From the NCBI GenBank assembly GCA_051047955.1, contig JBPGPT010000016.1, positions 186,001 through 250,000 on the forward strand: a stretch of 64,000 nt of DNA, read 5' to 3'. The stretch's first letter is position 1; each line of letters begins with the position of its first letter. Under the pieces are notes generated by a model. That model searched no databases, was not told where the DNA came from, and saw nothing but the letters and a program-made list of their open reading frames with translations. The position numbers were made by a program, and so were the translations under genes. The stretch is from Cystobasidiomycetes sp. EMM_F5. Lineage: Eukaryota. Below are positions 20,785-53,398 of this stretch, piece by piece.

Positions 20785-28602
<7,818 letters not shown>

Positions 28603-29906: not shown

Positions 29907-32292
29907 CTACTTCGCAGAATTGCCCTTTCGTTCTTTCCTGTCGACTTCCATCATGCGCAATCGCTCCTGCTGCTCCTGCCGTCTCGTTTCGTGGTCCGTC
30001 AAACCAGGTGCTCGTGTTCCCATTCCCCATCGCCCAGCTGCTTTGCCCCAGTTCTCGACCATTCCCCAAAAGTGTGTCGTAGCAATGTTTGGCTTTGGCA
30101 ACAAGCCAACATCGATTTCGGGATCCAGTGGATTCATCTTGACACCCCTCTGGTATTGACTTGCTGGTTGCGGTTTCGGCGGTGTTGGGGTAATTGGGCC
30201 GACGCTACTAGCAAACGGTTTGGGATGCTCCCATACCCGTTCTTCATACGGTATTGGAGTGTGTTTGGCAGTTTTAACGTATTCTTTGCTGGTCATTTCG
30301 AAGATGCGAGACAAAGCCCGCTTGTACGCAAATTGCTCGTCTTGACCGGTAAAGATGGCCAGATTACTCAAAACAGGCGAATTACTTGGAGCGGTAATCT
30401 TTGATGCTTCTCGTTTTGCTTCAGCCGAATCGTCGCGATATGCACTAATATTTGGTCGGAAAGATTCCTGATTGCAACAGGGCGTGTCAGTCTTTTATCG
30501 CGCGGCCGTCTCTGCAGAAGTATGCTCACGATTAGATCTTGAGATATTTCTCCTAATGTCTCTTGTATCATTGCATCGCCGTCTTTGAAAGCATCTAATA
30601 GGCTCGTCGCGTCGGGAAAAAAGATGTTATCAGGCTCCGCCGCAGCTGAGCATATGAGCCGCGTCTTGGCCTCGTCTAAATCAAGCATGGGACCTCAGCG
30701 CCTCTTCGTGCTCATCGCGGAGATCCACTCACAAGCGGCGTCAATGAACGTTATAAAACGTCTGGCTTCATTTTTTGCATTCAGCTTGAGCTGAGGTATG
30801 TTGTCAACGATGACGGTCGGGTAAGTGGAAGTGATAGTCAGATAATCTGCTGGTCCAAGTTCCTTCTGACACAAGTCTGCAAAGCTGAACCTGGCGACCT
30901 GCTGGTTGATTTGCAGAGGAACCTGGAGGCTACGTCCGTAGACTTTTAGTAATTTCGGCTCGCCTTCACCATCTGGCAAAGCGGCGTGGGCCAATTCAGC
31001 CATTTTCTTCGTTTCGGTGAACCACGTTGATGATCCAATAAAGTGTTCCGACCAGCTCGGGCGGGCTTCTTCTCCGTAGTATAGCTCGTTGGCACGCTCT
31101 CGCCTTCGCCAATCATTGTCGCTACGCAGCTGATAGACCGGACACCTGTCTTGGAGAGTTGTAAGAAAGCTCTAAGACGAGGACGTTAGCTTGGAGCTTG
31201 CATAGCGATAACTTAGGCACCTGAAATTGCTCTTGTTGTACACCTTGTTGATATAAATCGCTGGGCAAGCGATTACTTGTTCCAATAACGACTCCACCCA
31301 ATCTCCAGTACCATGTCAATACTCTGCGAATGATTCCCTGTGGATTAACCGATGTTAGCGACGTTTGGGAATCTGTTTCCTGATGTTTCGCACCGCTCCC
31401 GCAACATCCACAAGCTGAATCTCATCAAACGCCAGCACGGTCGAAGCTTCCATGAGTTCAACAGCTATTTTGGCCAGGACATATTCTTTGACGAGAGCAG
31501 TGTCGTCAAACTTTCGGCCCCCTGCAAAGACTTGACGCCAGCCCTTGGACAATGCTATTGCTTTGTTTTCTTCTCTGCGCGACCACGGGTAGCCTCTTGA
31601 CGGGTCCTGTTGCGCCAAGCGCTGCATCTCGCGTTCTTCGGCCTCCATCTGTACACGGTGATCTTCCAGGGCGACGAAGACCTTGCGGTAAAGACCAAGT
31701 AGGAATGCATGATAGTGTATGCGTTGTTTTCTGACGGGCAGACTGCGGTAGAATATGTCCAGCAGCATCGTCTTGCCCGTGCCGACGGAGCCAGTAAGCA
31801 GAAAGCCTGTGGGCGTATCTAGCATGGAGAGGTCGTCCTCGTGGGTGAGCGCTTTCACAAGAGACTTCTCCGTTCGTAAATTCGGCAGGATCCGATTAGC
31901 GAGTGATCCGGTATCGTCGGAGGTGCTTTCTTTGATGGACGGTGACGATGCAAGCATGCGCTTGAGTGATTGGGATGGCTCATAATTGACCAGGGTGGTA
32001 TGAACTTTCTTCAGCTGAAGCAGTGTCCGGACTTGCTCTTCGTCCCTAATGTCGTTGTACATACACAATCAGTCTACGAAATAAGCTGAAGTAGCACCAC
32101 GATCGCGAACCATTGGACCTTTCCAGCAGCGACGAGATTCTGGTACAAGACGAGTGGATCCGTTACTTCCAGAGCTGTGCTGGGGTCCGCAGATGTAGCC
32201 AGAAAACGCCGGCGATTGACACGACCCGACCGAGTGATCTGGTCACAGCTACGGATACTCCGGACACATGTTTCACATCGCCTGCGCAGCAT
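29907..32292 (-). CDS. AFG1/ZapE-family mitochondrial ATPase
   Basis: Arg-rich presequence-like N-terminus, Walker A GSVGTGKT, Walker B LAFDEIQ, TSNRLPSDLY, LGPADYL, NEARRFITFIDA, FAYKRALSRIFEM. Confidence 0.9.
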
Positions 32293-32609: not shown

Positions 32610-32617
32610 TATATATA
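32610..32617 (+). promoter_or_regulatory. TATA-like box upstream of U2 snRNA
   Basis: TATATATA ending about 22 nt before the inferred U2 5' end. Confidence 0.5.
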
Positions 32618-32638
32618 TCACTTAGAATGAGCCCGATC

Positions 32639-32870
32639 ATCCTATCTGGCCTTTTGGCTTAGATCAAGTGTAGTATCTGTTCTTTAAAGGTTAGTTAGAT
32701 GTACCGCGTTTTGCAAGTTCGAAACTGATCAAGATCCGATCGTAGAGTAATTTCTTTAATGTTGGCATAGCCAGCTTTATAAATTACCTTATCTTTACCG
32801 CCTCCGTTGAGCCCAGTGCTTGCACTAGTTCTTCGGACGATGGCCCCCGCATTACACTCCTGCGTTGGCT
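32639..32870 (+). ncRNA. U2: U2 spliceosomal snRNA, intron-containing
   Basis: GGCCTTTTGGCTTAGATCAAGTGTAGTATCTGTTCTT matches the universally conserved U2 5' region, including the branch-point recognition sequence GTAGTA (32670-32675). Stems IIa, IIb, IIc, III and IV can be drawn after removing 32690-32745. The 3' end is approximate. Confidence 0.93.
32690..32745 (+). other. Spliceosomal (mRNA-type) intron within U2 snRNA
   Basis: GTTAGT donor, CTGAT branch motif at 32725-32729, TAG acceptor, 56 nt. Removal restores stem-loop IIa: TTAAAG-AGTAATTT-CTTTAA. Confidence 0.88.
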
Positions 32871-33323
32871 GTCAGGGCTTCCCACTCGTTTTGCCGGGCT
32901 TTTTATGCCTCCTGTTTTACGAAAGTTTTGTGATTCGCTGAGACAACCTGTCAGTCAGGACTCATGTAGGTATCAGAGTGTGGGATTCCCGGCTTTATCG
33001 CATTTTGTTACAGCACAATTTGAGAGGCGGCCAGCGGAAATGGTTTCATCTTGTCGCTGCTAGAACCTTACGTTACTGTGTCCAAACCGCCCTCTGAACC
33101 TCAATGAGGAGGGCGAGGTGTTGTCCGAGTCAGGTACCGTTGAGGCCTTTCAAGGGCAACGATACAGAGCAGTTTGGGCACCGTTAGAGCTGCTCATTCA
33201 GCTTCTTCCTCAGTCCTGGAGCATCAGCGATTCGCGTATACACACCTCGTACTATCGCCTGTTGGCGTTTTGGTCGGTGTATATATATGCTCAAGTCGAG
33301 CTTTCCTTCAACATAACACAAAC

Positions 33324-33396
33324 GTTTCGTTAGCTCAAATGGTAGAGCGCGCGCCTAGTAAGCGCGAGGTAATGAGATCGATGCTCATACGAAACA
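33324..33396 (+). tRNA. tRNA-Thr(AGT)
   Basis: 73-nt cloverleaf: acceptor GTTTCGT/ACGAAAC, D stem GCTC/GAGC, anticodon arm CGCGC-CTAGTAA-GCGCG, T arm ATGAG-ATCGATG-CTCAT. Upstream TATA and downstream T runs. Confidence 0.92.
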
Positions 33397-33858: not shown

Positions 33859-36202
33859 ATGTCCCATCCTACCACGCAGCCGCAGCCTGTCGAGGCCCCC
33901 AGTGCAACAATGGTCTCAAAGGGCGAAGAGATGGACGTCGCTACCGATAAGCCCGCTGGGCCGCCTGCGCAAACAACAGTTTTGGAAGGGAAACAATTGG
34001 TGTTCGCATTCACAGGAATGATGGTAGGTCAACGGTAAACACCGCGAATATGTTCTAATCAAGCCTACCCTTATTTCAGCTTGCCATCTTTCTCAGTCAG
34101 TCGCGACTTGTGTTTCGGCTCATCAGTATGGTATAGCTGACTCATTCTATCTCTGAATCAGTTGCGCTGGATCAGACAAGTAAGCTGCCATGTACTGCGA
34201 AATGTAGAGCCGCCTGACAACGTATCTTAGTTCTCGCCACTGCGCTGCCGGAAATCGTCACTACTTTCAACTCCCTGGACTCTGTAACATGGGTGTCTGG
34301 TGGATTCATCCTTGCTCAAACCGGTCTCATGACAACCTTCGGCCAGGTCACCGCCCTCTACGTTCCTAAGTAAGTTTATTGCGAGTGCGCGGAGAGCTGG
34401 ACTGATGTGATTTACAGATATGTCTTTATTTCCGCCATTATCGTCTTTGAGATTGGCTCCTTACTTGCTGGCGTCGCTCCGAACATTGACGTCCTCATTC
34501 TCGGCCGGTAAGCCGAGGTACTCCTGCCAGCTTACCTGTACAATGGCTGATGTCTCATACAGTGCAATTACTGGTGCAGGTGCAGCCGGGCTCATGGTGT
34601 CGATGATCACAATCATGTCAGTAACGGGTAATAACCAGCGGCCGGAGAAACACTGTTCACATTTCACATTGCTAGGACCGAAATGATCCCGCTTCACAAA
34701 CGCGCGGCATACATGGGCATTTTCGGCTCCGTCTTCGGATTGGCGTCCGTGGTCGGCCCTTTAATAGGTGATTTGCAGCACGAAAAAGAAAATAAGGGAT
34801 TTACTGACCATATATATGTATCAGGTGGCGGATTTACTGACCATGTGTGGGTGTTATATACAACGCAGTTGGCTGTAGGAGTCTGACAAGCGTTTATCGG
34901 ACAGAACTTGGAGGTGGTGCTTCTATATGTGAGTATGTAAGGAGACCACAGTGTTGCAAGGATCTGACGCCGTTTACAGCAATCTGCCTTTTGGCGGTAT
35001 AGCGCTTGCAGCTGCCGTCTTCCTCGTCAAAAAGTCCACGCCACCTGCAGTGTCGATGGGAGACAAGCGCAATGGTTGGCAAAGAATGCTGTCCATCGAC
35101 TGGGTTGGAACTGTTCTGGTACTAGGTTGTGTGACAGCTCTGGTCTTCGCAACAACGTATGGGCCGAACCGAGGCTGGAACAACGGAGGCGTAATCGCTG
35201 TAAGAACGTTTGCTGAGGATGGCTATTAACTAAGCTAATACTCGATCTCCCTAGTGCCTTGTTGTGTGCGGCAGTCTGGCCATACTGACCGTCGCCTGGG
35301 AGTGGTATCTTGGTGACAAGGCCATGATTCCGTTATCGCTTTTCAAGAACCGCTCTTTCTGCGCAGTCATTGGCTCGCAGGTGTCTAGTCGTTGGGTCAT
35401 GCTTGTTCCTGTGTACTATCTACCTATCTACTTCCAAGCTGTCAAAAACCACTCTGCAACGACCTCCGGTCTCGATCTTCTTGGAGTCATTCTCTCACTC
35501 ATCGTTACTGGAACAATCGTTGGCATAATTGTACGCAAGACTGGCAAGTATGTGTACTTTATCATCGCTGGTCCGCTGCTGTCAGTCATCGGCCTTGCTC
35601 TGCTATTCACCGTCAAGGTCGACACGAGCTTCGCAAACATTCTGGGATACGAGATCCTCGTCGGAGTTGGCATTGGTTTATACTTCCAGATGGGTATGCT
35701 TGCTGCGCAAGCTGAATTCGCAAAGGAGCGTGCGAAGATGTCTCGAGCTATGGGAGTTACAACAGGCTCTCAAATGTTGGGTGGCATTGTCGGATTAGCA
35801 ATTGCTGGTGCGGTGTTCGATCAAAAGCTGGCCAACAACCTCGAACAATTTGCACCTGGAGTACCCGCTATCGTCGCCAATGCTCCAACTGCTCTGCGCC
35901 AATACGTATCGGGCTCGACGCTGGACGCAGTAATTCTGTCGTACGTCAATGCCGTCAAGTATACATTCATCGTCTGCGTTCCTATCGCGGGAATCAGCGC
36001 TATCGTGGCTTTGTTCATTAAAAACAGGCCGATGATGGCACCGGGGGCTCCGCCCGCTGGCAAGAAACCGGAGGACGTGGAAAAGCAATCGCAGAACCCA
36101 TCTGAGCGTGCGGCCGAGGCAAATGATGTACAAGATAATGACACGACGAGGAGGAACAGCCTAGATGCTGTTTCGAAATCATCGAGCTCGAGTCCTGTAT
36201 GA
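33859..36202 (+). CDS. MFS drug:H+ antiporter (DHA2 / 14-TMS type), many short exons
   Basis: VALDQT-ILATALP, FEIGSLLAGVA, GRAITGAGAAG, SVVGPLIGG, WRWCFY-INLPFG, YYLPIYFQAVK. Confidence 0.92.
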
Positions 36203-36369
36203 CCTGCTCCCATTCAGTATATCTTCGACGTTGTATGAATAACTTAGTCTGTGCGGGTGATAAGCCTGCATATTGTAAACCCCAAATGATAGCCCAGGCT
36301 GCTGCATGGCTGGATATGTCGAATGCATTCGATAATGATTGCCACCATGATGCTTCACTCCGCCTTGAT

Positions 36370-38694
36370 ATGAGCGACCAAGCAGCGCAACCTCCCTCAA
36401 AGCGCATACGTCTGGACTCTGCGTCGTTGCAAAATGAAGCGGACTGCGATAATAATGTCGCATTGAAGCGGTTGAATCCGCTCTCCCTAGCGAGCCGTCT
36501 CCAGCTCGCAAAATTGGACACAACGTCTGCCGAGCAACTCGTCGGCATTCGAGGTTATGTCAACGCATCTGTTCCGCCAATTTCGAATGCCATCATCAAA
36601 CATCGCTTTACAGACTTTTTGGTCTGGGAGATTTCTCAGTCTGGAGAGGTTGTCAGGTTGAAAAATATCGCAAGGCCGATACCGTCACCAGATACGACAG
36701 CATCGTCGGACTTTCAAGAGAATGGAGCCGAGAGCGTTCCTTCAGAGGACGCTGAAAATGTCAACCTGCTTGATTACATGTCGTCAGAAAAGCTGCAAGC
36801 GCTGCAGCGATTCGTTGATGCGGGTCCTAATGACGACTCCATCATTTCCGATGTGAGTACGCCAAAGATCGTCCACCCGCTCAGGCTGAAGTTCGTGCAG
36901 ACAATAGCGTCTAAAGATGACCGCAAAGCATTTCACCAGGCAATCCGTATTGCATATAATGGAAAGCTGGTTACGGTTGCGCAGGAAGGAAGTGCAATTA
37001 AGATTTCCTGGGACCGCGGAGATTCCAAAGGTGATGTGATATCTATGTTGTCGGAATTTCGCTCAAGCTTGTTTCGTTCAGATCGCCGGTCTATTCGGCC
37101 ATCGAAACCAGGACAGCGCTCCCTTCCGCCATACATACAATTCACTCTGCAGAAAACGAATCGTGAGACTCAAGACTGCCTTTCACAACTTGCCTCAAGA
37201 TTGGGTGTGTACAACAGAGACCTCGCGACGGCAGGAACGAAAGACAAACGCGGTGTTACTACGCAACTCGTCACGCTCAAACGCGGGAAGCGTACAATCG
37301 AGGAAGTATGGGATCAAGCGAACGGGTTGCATCATGGGAAGTCTCGCGGCTTTCGTGGCTCCGGACAAGGTGGCTATCTGGACCGCAAAGGGATGCAGCC
37401 AACGGAAAGGGGCGAACGTGGCATCAGAATTGGAGATCTATCGTACGTGAAGACCCCTCTGGACTTAGGCATGTTACAAGGCAACCGGTTCTGCATAGTC
37501 TTGCGGTGAGGTTGGTCTCTACTTGTCAAGTCTTGTAGCACTGATACCTTATTGTCCGTCACAAGAAACGTTGATGCTCCCACAGACGATGCCATCTCTC
37601 TCGCTGTGGAAACCCTCAAAACGACTGGCTTCATCAACTTTTATGGAATGCAAAGATTCGGTAATTCGTCGGTGCCAACACACGCTATTGGGCTTGCACT
37701 GTTGCGGAGCGAGTGGGAAGAAGCAGCCCGTCTCATCATCAGTGAACGGGATGGCGATACTGACGAGACTAAGGCCGCTCGTACGGCCTGGTTGACCGAT
37801 CGCAATGCGGAGCGAGCCTTGTCCATGATGCCGAAATGGGCTATCGCTGAACGCAGCCGTACGTTGTGATGAGTCCAAGCTGATGTCCCCCTTCGGCTGA
37901 CATGATGGTCTCTAGTATTGGAGTTCTACAGGTCTGAAAGCAGTGCAACAAATCATTACGGTGCCATTTCGCGGATACCCAAAAACTTACGGATGATGTA
38001 CGTGCACGCTTACCAGTCGTACATATGGAACTCGGCAGTTTCCGAAAGGATACGACTGTATGGATGTGAGAAGCCCATAGTCGGAGATCTGGTGTATGCC
38101 GATAACACAACTCAACCAAGTGAGGAAACGCAGTCGGAGGAGTTCAAACAGCCTTTAGAGCACGCGAGAGGATCGAAAGAGGCCCTTCAAGCTGCTTCGA
38201 AGGTGGCGAAAGTGACAGTCCTCACCGAAGACCAGTTGCTCAATTATACCATACATGACGTCGTTTTGCCTTTGCCGGGCTACATGGTCACGTACCCTGG
38301 TGGTGCGCTGGGAGAGTTGTATAGGGACATGATGCGTGCCGACGGGCTGGATGCAGACGATTTGTTCCGCAAACAGAAGGAAACGTCGCTGGGTGGCGCG
38401 TATAGAAAAATCGTCACGAGATTAAGCGATCTCACCTGGGAAGTCAGAAAGTACGATGATGCAAATGAGCAGCTTACAACGCCCGACGAGGACGCTCTCT
38501 TGGGTATACATCCTCCGCCTGCGAGAGGTCCTGGCAATAAAACTGCACTTATTCTATCCTTCAATTTGAATACGGCAAGCTACGCTACGATGGCATTGAG
38601 AGAAGTGTTGAAGACAGAGACCGGGAATGTGCAGCAGAAGGCGCTGTCGGAGGCCTTGCTTGACGACAAAGCCAGTGATGCCGCGCAAGGATAG
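36370..38694 (+). CDS. PUS7: Pseudouridine synthase 7 (TruD family)
   Basis: IKHRFTDFLVWEI, catalytic AGTKDKRGVTTQ, LQGNRF, GFINFYGMQRFG, MYVHAYQSYIWN, GAYRK, SYATMALRE. Confidence 0.96.
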
Positions 38695-50043: not shown

Positions 50044-53000
50044 ATGACAGACGAATGGGATAATTGGGATGTGCGCAATGCACGTCCCGAATCTGAGCAG
50101 ACAGGACGCTACAAATCCCTAACCTCTTCCAATTCCAGTCAGGTCTCGTGCAAAGATCCTGCAAAGCACAGTCAATCCACACACTCCGCCTTCAACGACT
50201 CTATCCATCCCACGACCACGCTTTCAGGCCTGAAGGCATCTCCTGACAATGGTATCAGACCAATTGTACGCATTGGCCGACAATCTCCACACATACCCCA
50301 AGCACGAGTGTATGCGCAAAATGTTGCAGGTAACAACGGCACTCAGGCCAACCCGGGTCATGAACACGAACGGCACAATCCTCCCCATCAACATAGTAGT
50401 TCTCCACGGTGGCATGCTGCGGGTCTCATCCCATCGCAGGTAAAATACCCTCAGTCGCCTCATGGATGGGATAATCATGAATCACAAAAGCCACCAAATC
50501 AAAATTATCTTGACTCTAAAGCCCTTCGTCCAGAGAATGGTCAGTCATACAGTGAACAGAATCATGGGGCCAGCCAATCCCGCCCTTTACCCCCAGATAA
50601 TCGCTCTCGTCATAATCTACAACAAAGCGATGTCGTGGCTCACTCAGATGCCAATCGAAGTGCGATCGTTCCAAGAAGGGCTGTCATGTCATCCCCACAA
50701 TCTCCAGCTAGAGCTCAAGCCGACATGAACACGCCAGCTGCGCTTGCTCCATTTGTTCTGCATATTCCCGAGGAGTTTCAACAAGGCTCGCCAGGACATA
50801 AAATGCTCAAAACCATGATATCCCGTCTAGCCAATACCGTTCTGTCTCATCCTCCGTCCTTCATTAAAACAAAATCATGCAATTTCAACGGGATGGGCAG
50901 CGCTGAAGTCCCCGCAGTCTCGATGACAGGTCCCCGAGCAAAAGAAGCTGCTCGACAGCTGTTGGAATTTTTCGTCGAAGAAAGTCAAGACTGCTACTTC
51001 ATCCAAGACACTCAGACCAAACATGCGCTTAACAGCGCGACTCCTCCTCTGCTCGACTCTAGCATTGAGCGGAGTCGTTTCGAGCAAAATGGTACGCGTC
51101 CTCTAGGCACGATTATCGAAACCAATAAGCCAATGCAATCTGCGACAGGCAGTGACGCTTTGCAGCACGGGAATGGCTGGGATGCACTCTTATCTTCTCG
51201 ATATGCAAGTCCTGAAAGCACGCTCGAATTCGCCAACAAGAATTCCGAAAAAAGCGAAGGTGTCCCACAAATCGGTATTCTGCGCTGGCAATTTCCACTT
51301 CACGATCTGTTTCGTGTACTTATACACAACCACACAAGTACAGATATCCGAATGGCCACGCATGTCCCCTTTGTCAAGTTTGCCAGACTTGCGCCTGGTA
51401 GCGGGGCGCCGTCAATAGAGATCACCATGACTGGCGGTCGGTCGCCACTAACCTGGAAAGAACATTATCGTTTACGTTTGGCTTTCCAAGTCACAGTGGC
51501 AGTCTGCGAATTGGTCCGTCCGGACATCTACCTACCAAGAAAATGCGATATCCATCCTGCATTCAGGTCATCTGGCAGACATAGCTTTCTCGATGACGGA
51601 AAGGCACTGCTTCTCGAAGAAGTCCGATCCCAGCTACAATCTGGCAGATTCAATCTAGCGATTGCTGTTGGAAAGCTGATCGATAATATTTGCGCGGCGG
51701 AGGCTGAAAGTAGTGTATTCCAGCGTCGCGGCGCGCACGAGCGACATGCTAGTGGCCAATCTTACGAATCCCGGGAGCCTGCAACCTATGGCGACGATAG
51801 CCGTGAGGCACATGCCGGTATCGCGAGCGGGCAGCCGAAGAAAAGATCCTCGAAAGCTCCAGGAAGCCACCGGGATCCCCGAGGTATCGAGGATGATTCG
51901 CGACAGCTTCCGATAGGAGCAGTTGAGCGTATTGACAACACATACAGCGCAAGCCATAATGACCAGTCTTTTTCATCGCCGATGACTGCCCCCTCGATGT
52001 CCCGCTCCCTCCAGGTCAGCTGGTTCTTGGCGGACCGGAAGTCTCGAGGAGCTCTGCTGGGAGCTCGAATGAGCACTCTATCTAGTCTCTTGAAAGCCTC
52101 GGGTATTTCGGACTTCAGAATGAGTGATCCGAGCAGGTCGGCAGATTGTTCTCGCCAATTGACTCTGATAAATACCGTGGATGGCGACACTCGTCAAGCT
52201 TTTGACGAGGCTGTGTCTCGGCTTCGTCTAGCTGTCAGACTGTTTGTGGGCGTGGCAGAATTGATTGATCCCGGCCACTATGTGCCAACCGCCTCCGATC
52301 TGCCATCGTTCCTGGATCTGTCTTCCACAGAATTACTTTCGCCGGACGAGATTCTATATATCAGCAACGTGAGAAAACGAGCTTCGGAATCAACACACTT
52401 ATCGCATGTCCCGCATAGGCCTTACTTCACTCACAACGATATAGAAGCACTGATGACGCGACTCTCAACCCGTCAGACTGTATCTTCCAGTTGTGGGAAC
52501 AAGATCGCACTTCCGCACGATGCTGCCTTTATTTCCGCAACGACCGTTACGTCACAACATCCGATAAATTTGGTACAGGATATTCATCAGGACGCCTTCA
52601 CACATCAATGGCAGGAGCCGTCAACACCAGAACTTCTTCAGCATTCGGATGCGTCCGCTCAAGCAGCTGTAACGAATGAAACGGATATGCATTGCGAGCA
52701 GCCGCTTGCACTGATGTGGCCATCTGCAGACCTTTGTGCTATCGACGATGGCTTAATTGACAATCGAGCGGATGAGGCCGCATTGGGCGAAGATTTCGAA
52801 AGCGACCAGTGGAAGATACTGACACCGCAGCGACGAATGCAATTACTAGGCTCGGCATTCTGGATCACTGAAGTGGTCCTCAGTTGTCTGTCGGACAGTG
52901 AAGGTGCCCGTCAGCGTTACCTCAGCGCACGCAACAACGGCGAACGAACGGTAGATTTTCCTCGAAGCGGTACCGAAATGTCTCACGCCAAAGTCCTCGA

Positions 53001-53398
53001 CCATGAGAATCACGATTCCGTGACTGAACTAACACATGCTGCCTCTGCACGCACGCTCAACACTGTTACGGTAAGTCTATTTTGCCCTTACTTTCACAGA
53101 TTCAGCAATGCTGATCCCGCAAAGGCGGCAGGATCGCCCTACAGAGATAGGTATTGGCGGCGAGACAGCCACACTAGATGGTCCAGACTTAATCAGCCTG
53201 CACAATCTAGTCGAGACGGGCTGGGGCACGCTCGAGCACATCAGGCCCGACTCGCCCAGTGATAGCTATTCACCTCGTAACAGACGTCACAGAAGAGAAA
53301 ACTCTGAGTGGGAGGGAATGTTGGCGTCGGGCGATGGTCCGCCACCTTACGTCAGTGCTGCCCTCGGCAGGGACTCATGGAGCATTAAGCCCCAATGA
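50044..53398 (+). CDS. Large hypothetical protein (about 1100 aa) with internal degenerate KH-like repeats
   Basis: 1072-aa ORF; an intron at 53071-53131 leads to a last exon ending at 53398. Repeated RLRLA-x-ELxxP-xxYxP segments. Confidence 0.7.

Follow-up and report, generated by a model that had tools for sequence, protein, structure and literature searches.

A cmscan search against Rfam of the whole stretch of DNA under analysis (64,000 nucleotides, hereafter the window) located a match to U2 snRNA (RF00004) at 32639-32880 on the forward strand, scoring 97.4 bits (E 2.6e-18) against a gathering score of 46, with an alignment that spans the model in full (positions 1-192 of 192). A permissive Rfam scan returned the identical result for U2. 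The first 51 nt of the locus are close to the Rfam consensus, with every upper-case (conserved) consensus position of model 1-46 matched, and the match deviates substantially at one place alone, the stem IIa loop, where an insertion is left unaligned. Judged by this full-length match, obtained on the unspliced window, the locus is a genuine U2 snRNA gene, as the first-pass annotation had named it. The elements of the locus and the evidence that places them are as follows.

32610-32618 (+): TATA-like run TATATATAT; it begins 29 nt upstream of the U2 start (sequence reading)
32639-32880 (+): U2 gene, 242 nt in precursor form and 186 nt once the insert is removed (RF00004)
32639-32689 (+): exon 1, 51 nt, ending in AAG (Rfam consensus alignment and sequence reading)
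32670-32675 (+): branch-point recognition hexamer GTAGTA (sequence reading)
32684-32689 (+): 5' strand of stem IIa, TTAAAG (pair list)
32690-32745 (+): putative spliceosomal intron, 56 nt (splice signals, intron filter)
32690-32695 (+): donor GTTAGT (sequence reading)
32725-32729 (+): branch motif CTGAT, its A at 32728 lying 17 nt from the last intron base (sequence reading)
32743-32745 (+): acceptor TAG (sequence reading)
32746-32880 (+): exon 2, 135 nt, including stem-loops III and IV (Rfam alignment, pair lists, pair probabilities)
32746-32753 (+): loop IIa, AGTAATTT, 8 nt after insert removal (Rfam alignment)
32754-32759 (+): 3' strand of stem IIa, CTTTAA (pair list)
32761-32775 (+): stem-loop IIb (Rfam alignment)
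32781-32787 (+): 3' strand of stem IIc, AAATTAC (Rfam alignment)
32791-32798 (+): Sm-site position, ATCTTTAC (Rfam alignment)

Exon 1 thus contains the 5' end, stem-loop I, the branch-point recognition hexamer and the 5' strand of stem IIa. Compared with the canonical intronless U2 of RF00004, the locus retains all model positions, the hexamer, stem I, stems IIa and IIb, the complementarity that forms IIc and stem-loops III and IV. It differs in the 56-nt break within the IIa loop, in a stem IIa strand that ends in AAAG where the consensus has CAG, and in a non-canonical Sm-site position. Neither the standard and permissive Rfam scans nor sequence comparison revealed a second U2 within the 64-kb window, and the permissive scan (E up to 0.1, 64 kb) returned U2 and one tRNA only, with no other interrupted non-coding RNA gene.

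The insert opens at 32690, 14 nt past the GTAGTA hexamer, and its last base is 32745. It is placed precisely where the 5' strand of stem IIa gives way to the loop. The putative intron starts directly after the last base of that strand, which is probably the equivalent of yeast G53. The first-pass annotation had described a 56-nt insert carrying a GTTAGT donor, a CTGAT branch motif and a TAG acceptor, and had placed it 14 nt after the branch-point recognition sequence; the signals were found in the sequence as described and the distance follows from the coordinates. The exact borders are set by these splice signals and not by the covariance model, since cmscan assigned the opening four bases of the insert (GTTA) to the loop and kept the following 60 nt, up to CTTTAA, out of the alignment. 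An alternative donor at 32694 (GTTAGA) was judged less likely, as the loop remaining after its use would be 12 nt long and its +6 base is poorer. The AAG at 32731-32733 is implausible as an acceptor, lying just 5 nt beyond the branch A.

A sample of the host's own introns was available in the PRP8 gene at 20904-28599 (+), identified by Pfam domains and tblastn approximately 4 kb upstream of U2. Its introns were mapped by aligning the PRP8 protein of Rhodotorula graminis and taking, wherever the alignment broke, the GT..AG segment that gave the best restoration of the protein. This gave twelve introns with lengths of 62, 55, 60, 132, 61, 56, 56, 61, 55, 54, 47 and 58 nt. Their donors follow the pattern GT..G[T/C/G] (GTGAGT, GTAAGT, GTCAGT and similar), a CTRAY branch motif, the A of which lies 11-19 nt from the 3' end, is present in 11/12, and the acceptor is CAG in 11/12 and TAG in the remaining one. 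For that single TAG acceptor, the position at 25402 (score 251) was chosen over a top-scoring GAG at 25405 (score 253). The 132-nt intron (24826-24957, +) is about twice the usual length and contains two CTRAY motifs, 88 and 19 nt from its end; it could be one long intron or a pair flanking a very small exon.

The U2 insert is mid-range among the PRP8 introns both in length (56 nt) and in branch distance (17 nt), which bears out the earlier remark that it resembles the mRNA introns of this window. The T at position +3 of its donor is the rarest base there (0/12 PRP8 introns), and its TAG acceptor belongs to a minority. To place these features in a wider sample we used an intron filter requiring GT..G[CT], [CT]AG, CTRAY with the A 11-19 nt from the end and a length of 45-65 nt. 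The filter recovers 9/12 PRP8 introns and yields 43 hits on the forward and 28 on the reverse strand of the window, compared with 11.6 +/- 4.0 per random 64 kb. Among these 71 hits, 8 carry T at +3 and 19 end in TAG. Between 32500 and 33000 the sole segment that passes is 32690-32745, at exactly those borders. Overall, the insert looks like one of the host's own short spliceosomal introns in every measurable respect.

We then asked how often an intron-like segment would fit the loop by chance, counting cases in which a segment passing the filter lies inside a 64-nt loop and leaves a loop of 4-12 nt. This was seen in 157/300,000 Markov-1 random loops and in 248/300,000 shuffles of the real 64 nt, corresponding to a chance of approximately 5-8 in 10,000. 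Real 64-nt windows of the sequence passed in 359/127,872 cases, a set in which genuine introns are included.

These figures bear on the proposal that the 56 nt are retained in mature U2 as a lineage-specific expansion of the stem IIa loop. Such an expansion is consistent with the covariance search, as cmscan can model the stretch as a loop insertion. Against it, the stretch carries donor, branch site and acceptor alike, placed so that excision brings back an 8-nt loop (p below 0.001). Moreover, the insert folded alone has a minimum free energy of -6.5 kcal/mol (z 0.66), with 149 of 200 shuffles folding as well or better; being no better folded than shuffles, it is not like a structured expansion segment. 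The insert also brings the predicted pairing of stem IIa to 0, while prespliceosome formation needs stem IIa according to the passages on this stem in PMC4712673. We regard retention of the 56 nt as highly improbable. The insert was also considered as a repeated or mobile element and rejected as such, its best other match in the window covering 15/16 bases (E 0.14).

Removal of the insert has a clear predicted effect on the fold of the RNA. Stem IIa, TTAAAG/CTTTAA, then consists of six Watson-Crick pairs (6/6), and the 8 nt of its loop equal the length of the Rfam consensus loop (4 shown and 4 hidden positions). Within the loop, GTAATTT (32747-32753) is the exact reverse complement of AAATTAC, so that stem IIc could form with 7/7 pairs. 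The pair lists therefore uphold what had been read from the letters, namely a perfect 6-bp stem IIa, an 8-nt loop after removal and complementarity of that loop to the downstream AAATTAC. In the unspliced RNA the six pairs of stem IIa have predicted probabilities of 0.0, compared with 0.23-0.32 in the spliced RNA, while the seven pairs of stem IIc are predicted at 0.81-0.96 unspliced and 0.56-0.67 spliced. The isolated IIa hairpin has an energy of +1.4 kcal/mol with its 64-nt loop unspliced and of -1.6 kcal/mol with the 8-nt loop of the spliced form. In silico, then, removal of the insert is required for stem IIa to form.

The significance of this fold can be gauged from work on yeast. Stems IIa and IIc of U2 are described as mutually exclusive, with stem IIa promoting branch-site association and prespliceosome formation and stem IIc able to inhibit, and the stem IIa mutation G53A pushes yeast U2 into IIc (all from the sections of PMC4712673 on these stems). 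By analogy with yeast U2, the unspliced RNA would be assembly-incompetent.

Taken together, these observations suggest that the U2 gene is interrupted by a single ordinary mRNA-type GT-AG intron of 56 nt, a reading to which we assign a probability of roughly 0.78. A spliceosomal intron is by far the best reading of 32690-32745, given that its borders, branch distance, length and the structure restored by its removal all fit together, and given a precedent in the same subphylum. Under the spliceosomal-intron reading, the gene would be transcribed as a 242-nt precursor that is predicted to adopt the competing stem IIc pairing and to be inactive before excision. Spliceosomes containing already mature U2 would excise 32690-32745 and join ...AAAG to AGTAATTT..., and only after this excision could stem IIa with its 8-nt loop form, the conformation for branch-site binding and prespliceosome formation. 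We infer transcription, splicing in vivo and inactivity of the precursor, as well as any origin of the U2 intron by reverse splicing. Among the 24 public sequencing runs listed, none was from this fungus, and the best shared 0.04 of 48 sampled words, which corresponds to a short conserved part. A search of metagenome contigs for the U2 of relatives, using a 19-nt query that spans IIc and the Sm site, returned 17 loci (L001-L017), in 0/17 of which Rfam finds U2; they are chance matches, Rfam finding just two tRNAs (L014 and L017).

The position of the intron invites stronger proposals. One is that the intron is the only route to a working U2 and that its placement is not accidental, with splicing licensing a precursor held in the assembly-incompetent IIc form; we consider this distinctly unlikely. 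The first-pass annotation went in another direction and proposed that a real intron also acts as an autoregulatory sensor, coupling the supply of U2 to splicing capacity through the IIa/IIc switch. Its location at the junction of stem IIa and loop, and the predicted preference of the unspliced form for stem IIc, would fit such a sensor, and the U6 review (PMC5855946), where it touches on regulation, allows that snRNA introns might have a regulatory use in species that possess several paralogues. The same passages, however, give no demonstrated regulatory role for the intron of the sole S. pombe U6 gene. For the insert described here we found no conserved element, alternative splice site or paralogue, and it is unstructured and unique in the window. 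Furthermore, if the splicing of pre-U2 depends on mature U2, the feedback would be positive (more U2 giving more spliced U2), which is not the behaviour of a homeostatic sensor and would not stabilise the U2 level. Nothing in the sequence indicates regulation, leaving the sensor proposal unsupported; we judge it very unlikely, and there is no need for a regulatory role to explain the U2 intron.

The main reservation concerns not the intron but whether this copy is a working U2, because the Sm-site position is non-canonical. At 32791-32798, the Rfam alignment sets ATCTTTAC against the consensus AUUUUUgg, in which a run of uridines precedes G, and this is the only conserved single-stranded element of U2 that departs from consensus. 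The departure could be either a lineage-specific trait or a sign of a non-working copy. In the latter case the locus would be a minor, variant or decaying copy, with an intronless U2 elsewhere supplying the working RNA, and the insert, perhaps still an intron, would be inconsequential. The rare T at +3 of the donor would agree with such a copy, and a parallel exists in eight fungal genomes in which intron-bearing and intronless U3 genes coexist, as given in the U3 survey's account of such genomes (PMC5832005). Several features of the locus argue the other way. The match is full-length at 97.4 bits, with the conserved positions of the first 46 nt all matched, stems IIa and IIb are intact despite a sequence that differs from consensus, and the complementarity between the IIa loop and IIc is retained over 7/7 pairs. 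The TATA-like run TATATATAT at -29, a possible Pol II snRNA promoter element, and the lack of a second U2 within the 64-kb window also speak against a dispensable copy, which we consider unlikely.

Introns in spliceosomal RNA genes have precedents. The U6 review, in its passages on such introns, states that many fungi have them in U6 and lists further cases in U2 (Takahashi et al. 1993) as well as U1 and U5 (Takahashi et al. 1996); it notes that splicing has for the most part not been validated experimentally and that the determinants of insertion are unclear (PMC5855946). The description of an intron in U2 as rare but known was therefore apt, that review citing one U2 case in the passages concerned, Takahashi et al. 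1993 (PMC5855946). The case is the U2 gene of Rhodotorula hasegawae (Takahashi et al. 1993, Mol Cell Biol 13:5613), which is also cited in the relevant part of PMC2396436.

The U2 gene of R. hasegawae (now Erythrobasidium hasegawianum) resembles the one described here in having one short GT-AG intron within its 5' functional half, downstream of the branch-point recognition sequence, and both come from Pucciniomycotina. The R. hasegawae intron is reportedly 60 bp long, its site directly downstream of the domain that recognises the branch site. The intron here is 56 nt long and lies 14 nt downstream, at the junction of stem IIa and its loop. This suggests a site in R. hasegawae that is nearby but probably different.

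Comparison with other small RNA genes places the U2 intron in context. Like the introns of fungal U6 genes (S. pombe, Tani and Ohshima 1989), it has a canonical 5' splice site, branch site and 3' splice site; in U6 the intron sequence is otherwise unconserved and the snRNA needs the spliceosome to mature (PMC5855946, in its description of U6 introns), as the U2 described here would. In contrast, U6 is transcribed by Pol III, and the introns in it are concentrated near the catalytic core, which is how the reverse-splicing idea arose, whereas the site described here is in the IIa/IIc switch, which is no known active-site element. The introns of fungal U3 snoRNA genes offer a second comparison, since they too are normal short introns in a Pol II-transcribed gene for a small structured RNA, although the RNA and its function are different (PMC5832005, sections on U3 introns). 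That survey reports introns in 138/310 fungal U3 genes and in 78/147 genomes, with a broad distribution in Basidiomycota and with two introns in both U3 genes of Rhodotorula graminis; in the corresponding passages U3 and U6 are, among small structured RNAs, the sole ones known to be interrupted often (PMC5832005).

While U6 and U3 have fungus-wide surveys, introns in U2 genes rest on the single 1993 case in the searchable literature. We found no other U2 intron and no U2-wide survey in the literature searched, which did not cover Canzler 2016 and the supplements of Davila Lopez 2008. Canzler et al. 2016 reportedly surveyed spliceosomal introns in fungal U6 genes, and the Davila Lopez 2008 supplements reportedly contain predictions of fungal snRNAs, among which there may already be Basidiomycota U2 genes with insertions.

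Protein comparisons support a source in the same subphylum as R. hasegawae, the Pucciniomycotina. A PRP8 fragment is 88-90% identical to the proteins of Rhodotorula graminis, Sporobolomyces, Atractiella, Puccinia and Mixia, several Pucciniomycotina classes being alike in this respect, and a DPH1 fragment has at best 50% identity with named Microbotryomycetes, the figure for unnamed proteins being 55-65%. By these comparisons the source is a Pucciniomycotina lineage without close named relatives in the protein collection.

The U2 locus is thus a probable further case of a rare, already known arrangement. A second case in this subphylum would help to tell a lineage trait of Pucciniomycotina from repeated gains of U2 introns. 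Because the site lies in the stem IIa/IIc switch and not beside the branch-pairing sequence, it is relevant as well to the hypothesis that snRNA introns come from reverse splicing. Under the unlikely licensing proposal given above, a second U2 intron at a site away from the catalytic centre would also argue that snRNA introns arise at any exposed proto-splice site (AAG|A here) and not solely through reverse splicing at the active site. For genome annotation, covariance models still detect an intron-bearing U2, but the annotated 'mature' RNA would be 56 nt too long.

Several further features of the window were recorded. An ORF for an AFG1-like ATPase (31355-32068, -; PF03969) is transcribed away from U2, and the spacer of approximately 570 bp between the two contains the TATA-like run at 32610-32618. 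An intronless tRNA-Thr(AGT) gene (33324-33396, +; ARAGORN) lies 444 nt downstream of U2 on the same strand. Farther downstream, an uninterrupted ORF of 1072 aa (50044-53262, +) has no Pfam family and no relative but itself among 5.8 billion proteins; by this search it is an orphan gene of the lineage. Finally, three splicing-related genes are found within 17 kb, namely PRP8 (20904-28599, +), U2 (32639-32880, +) and an ORF for a TruD-family pseudouridine synthase (36199-37509, +; PF01142, E 8.3e-15), the last of these 3.3 kb downstream of U2. In yeast, U2 itself is a substrate of the TruD enzyme Pus7; that PRP8, U2 and TruD lie together may be coincidental.
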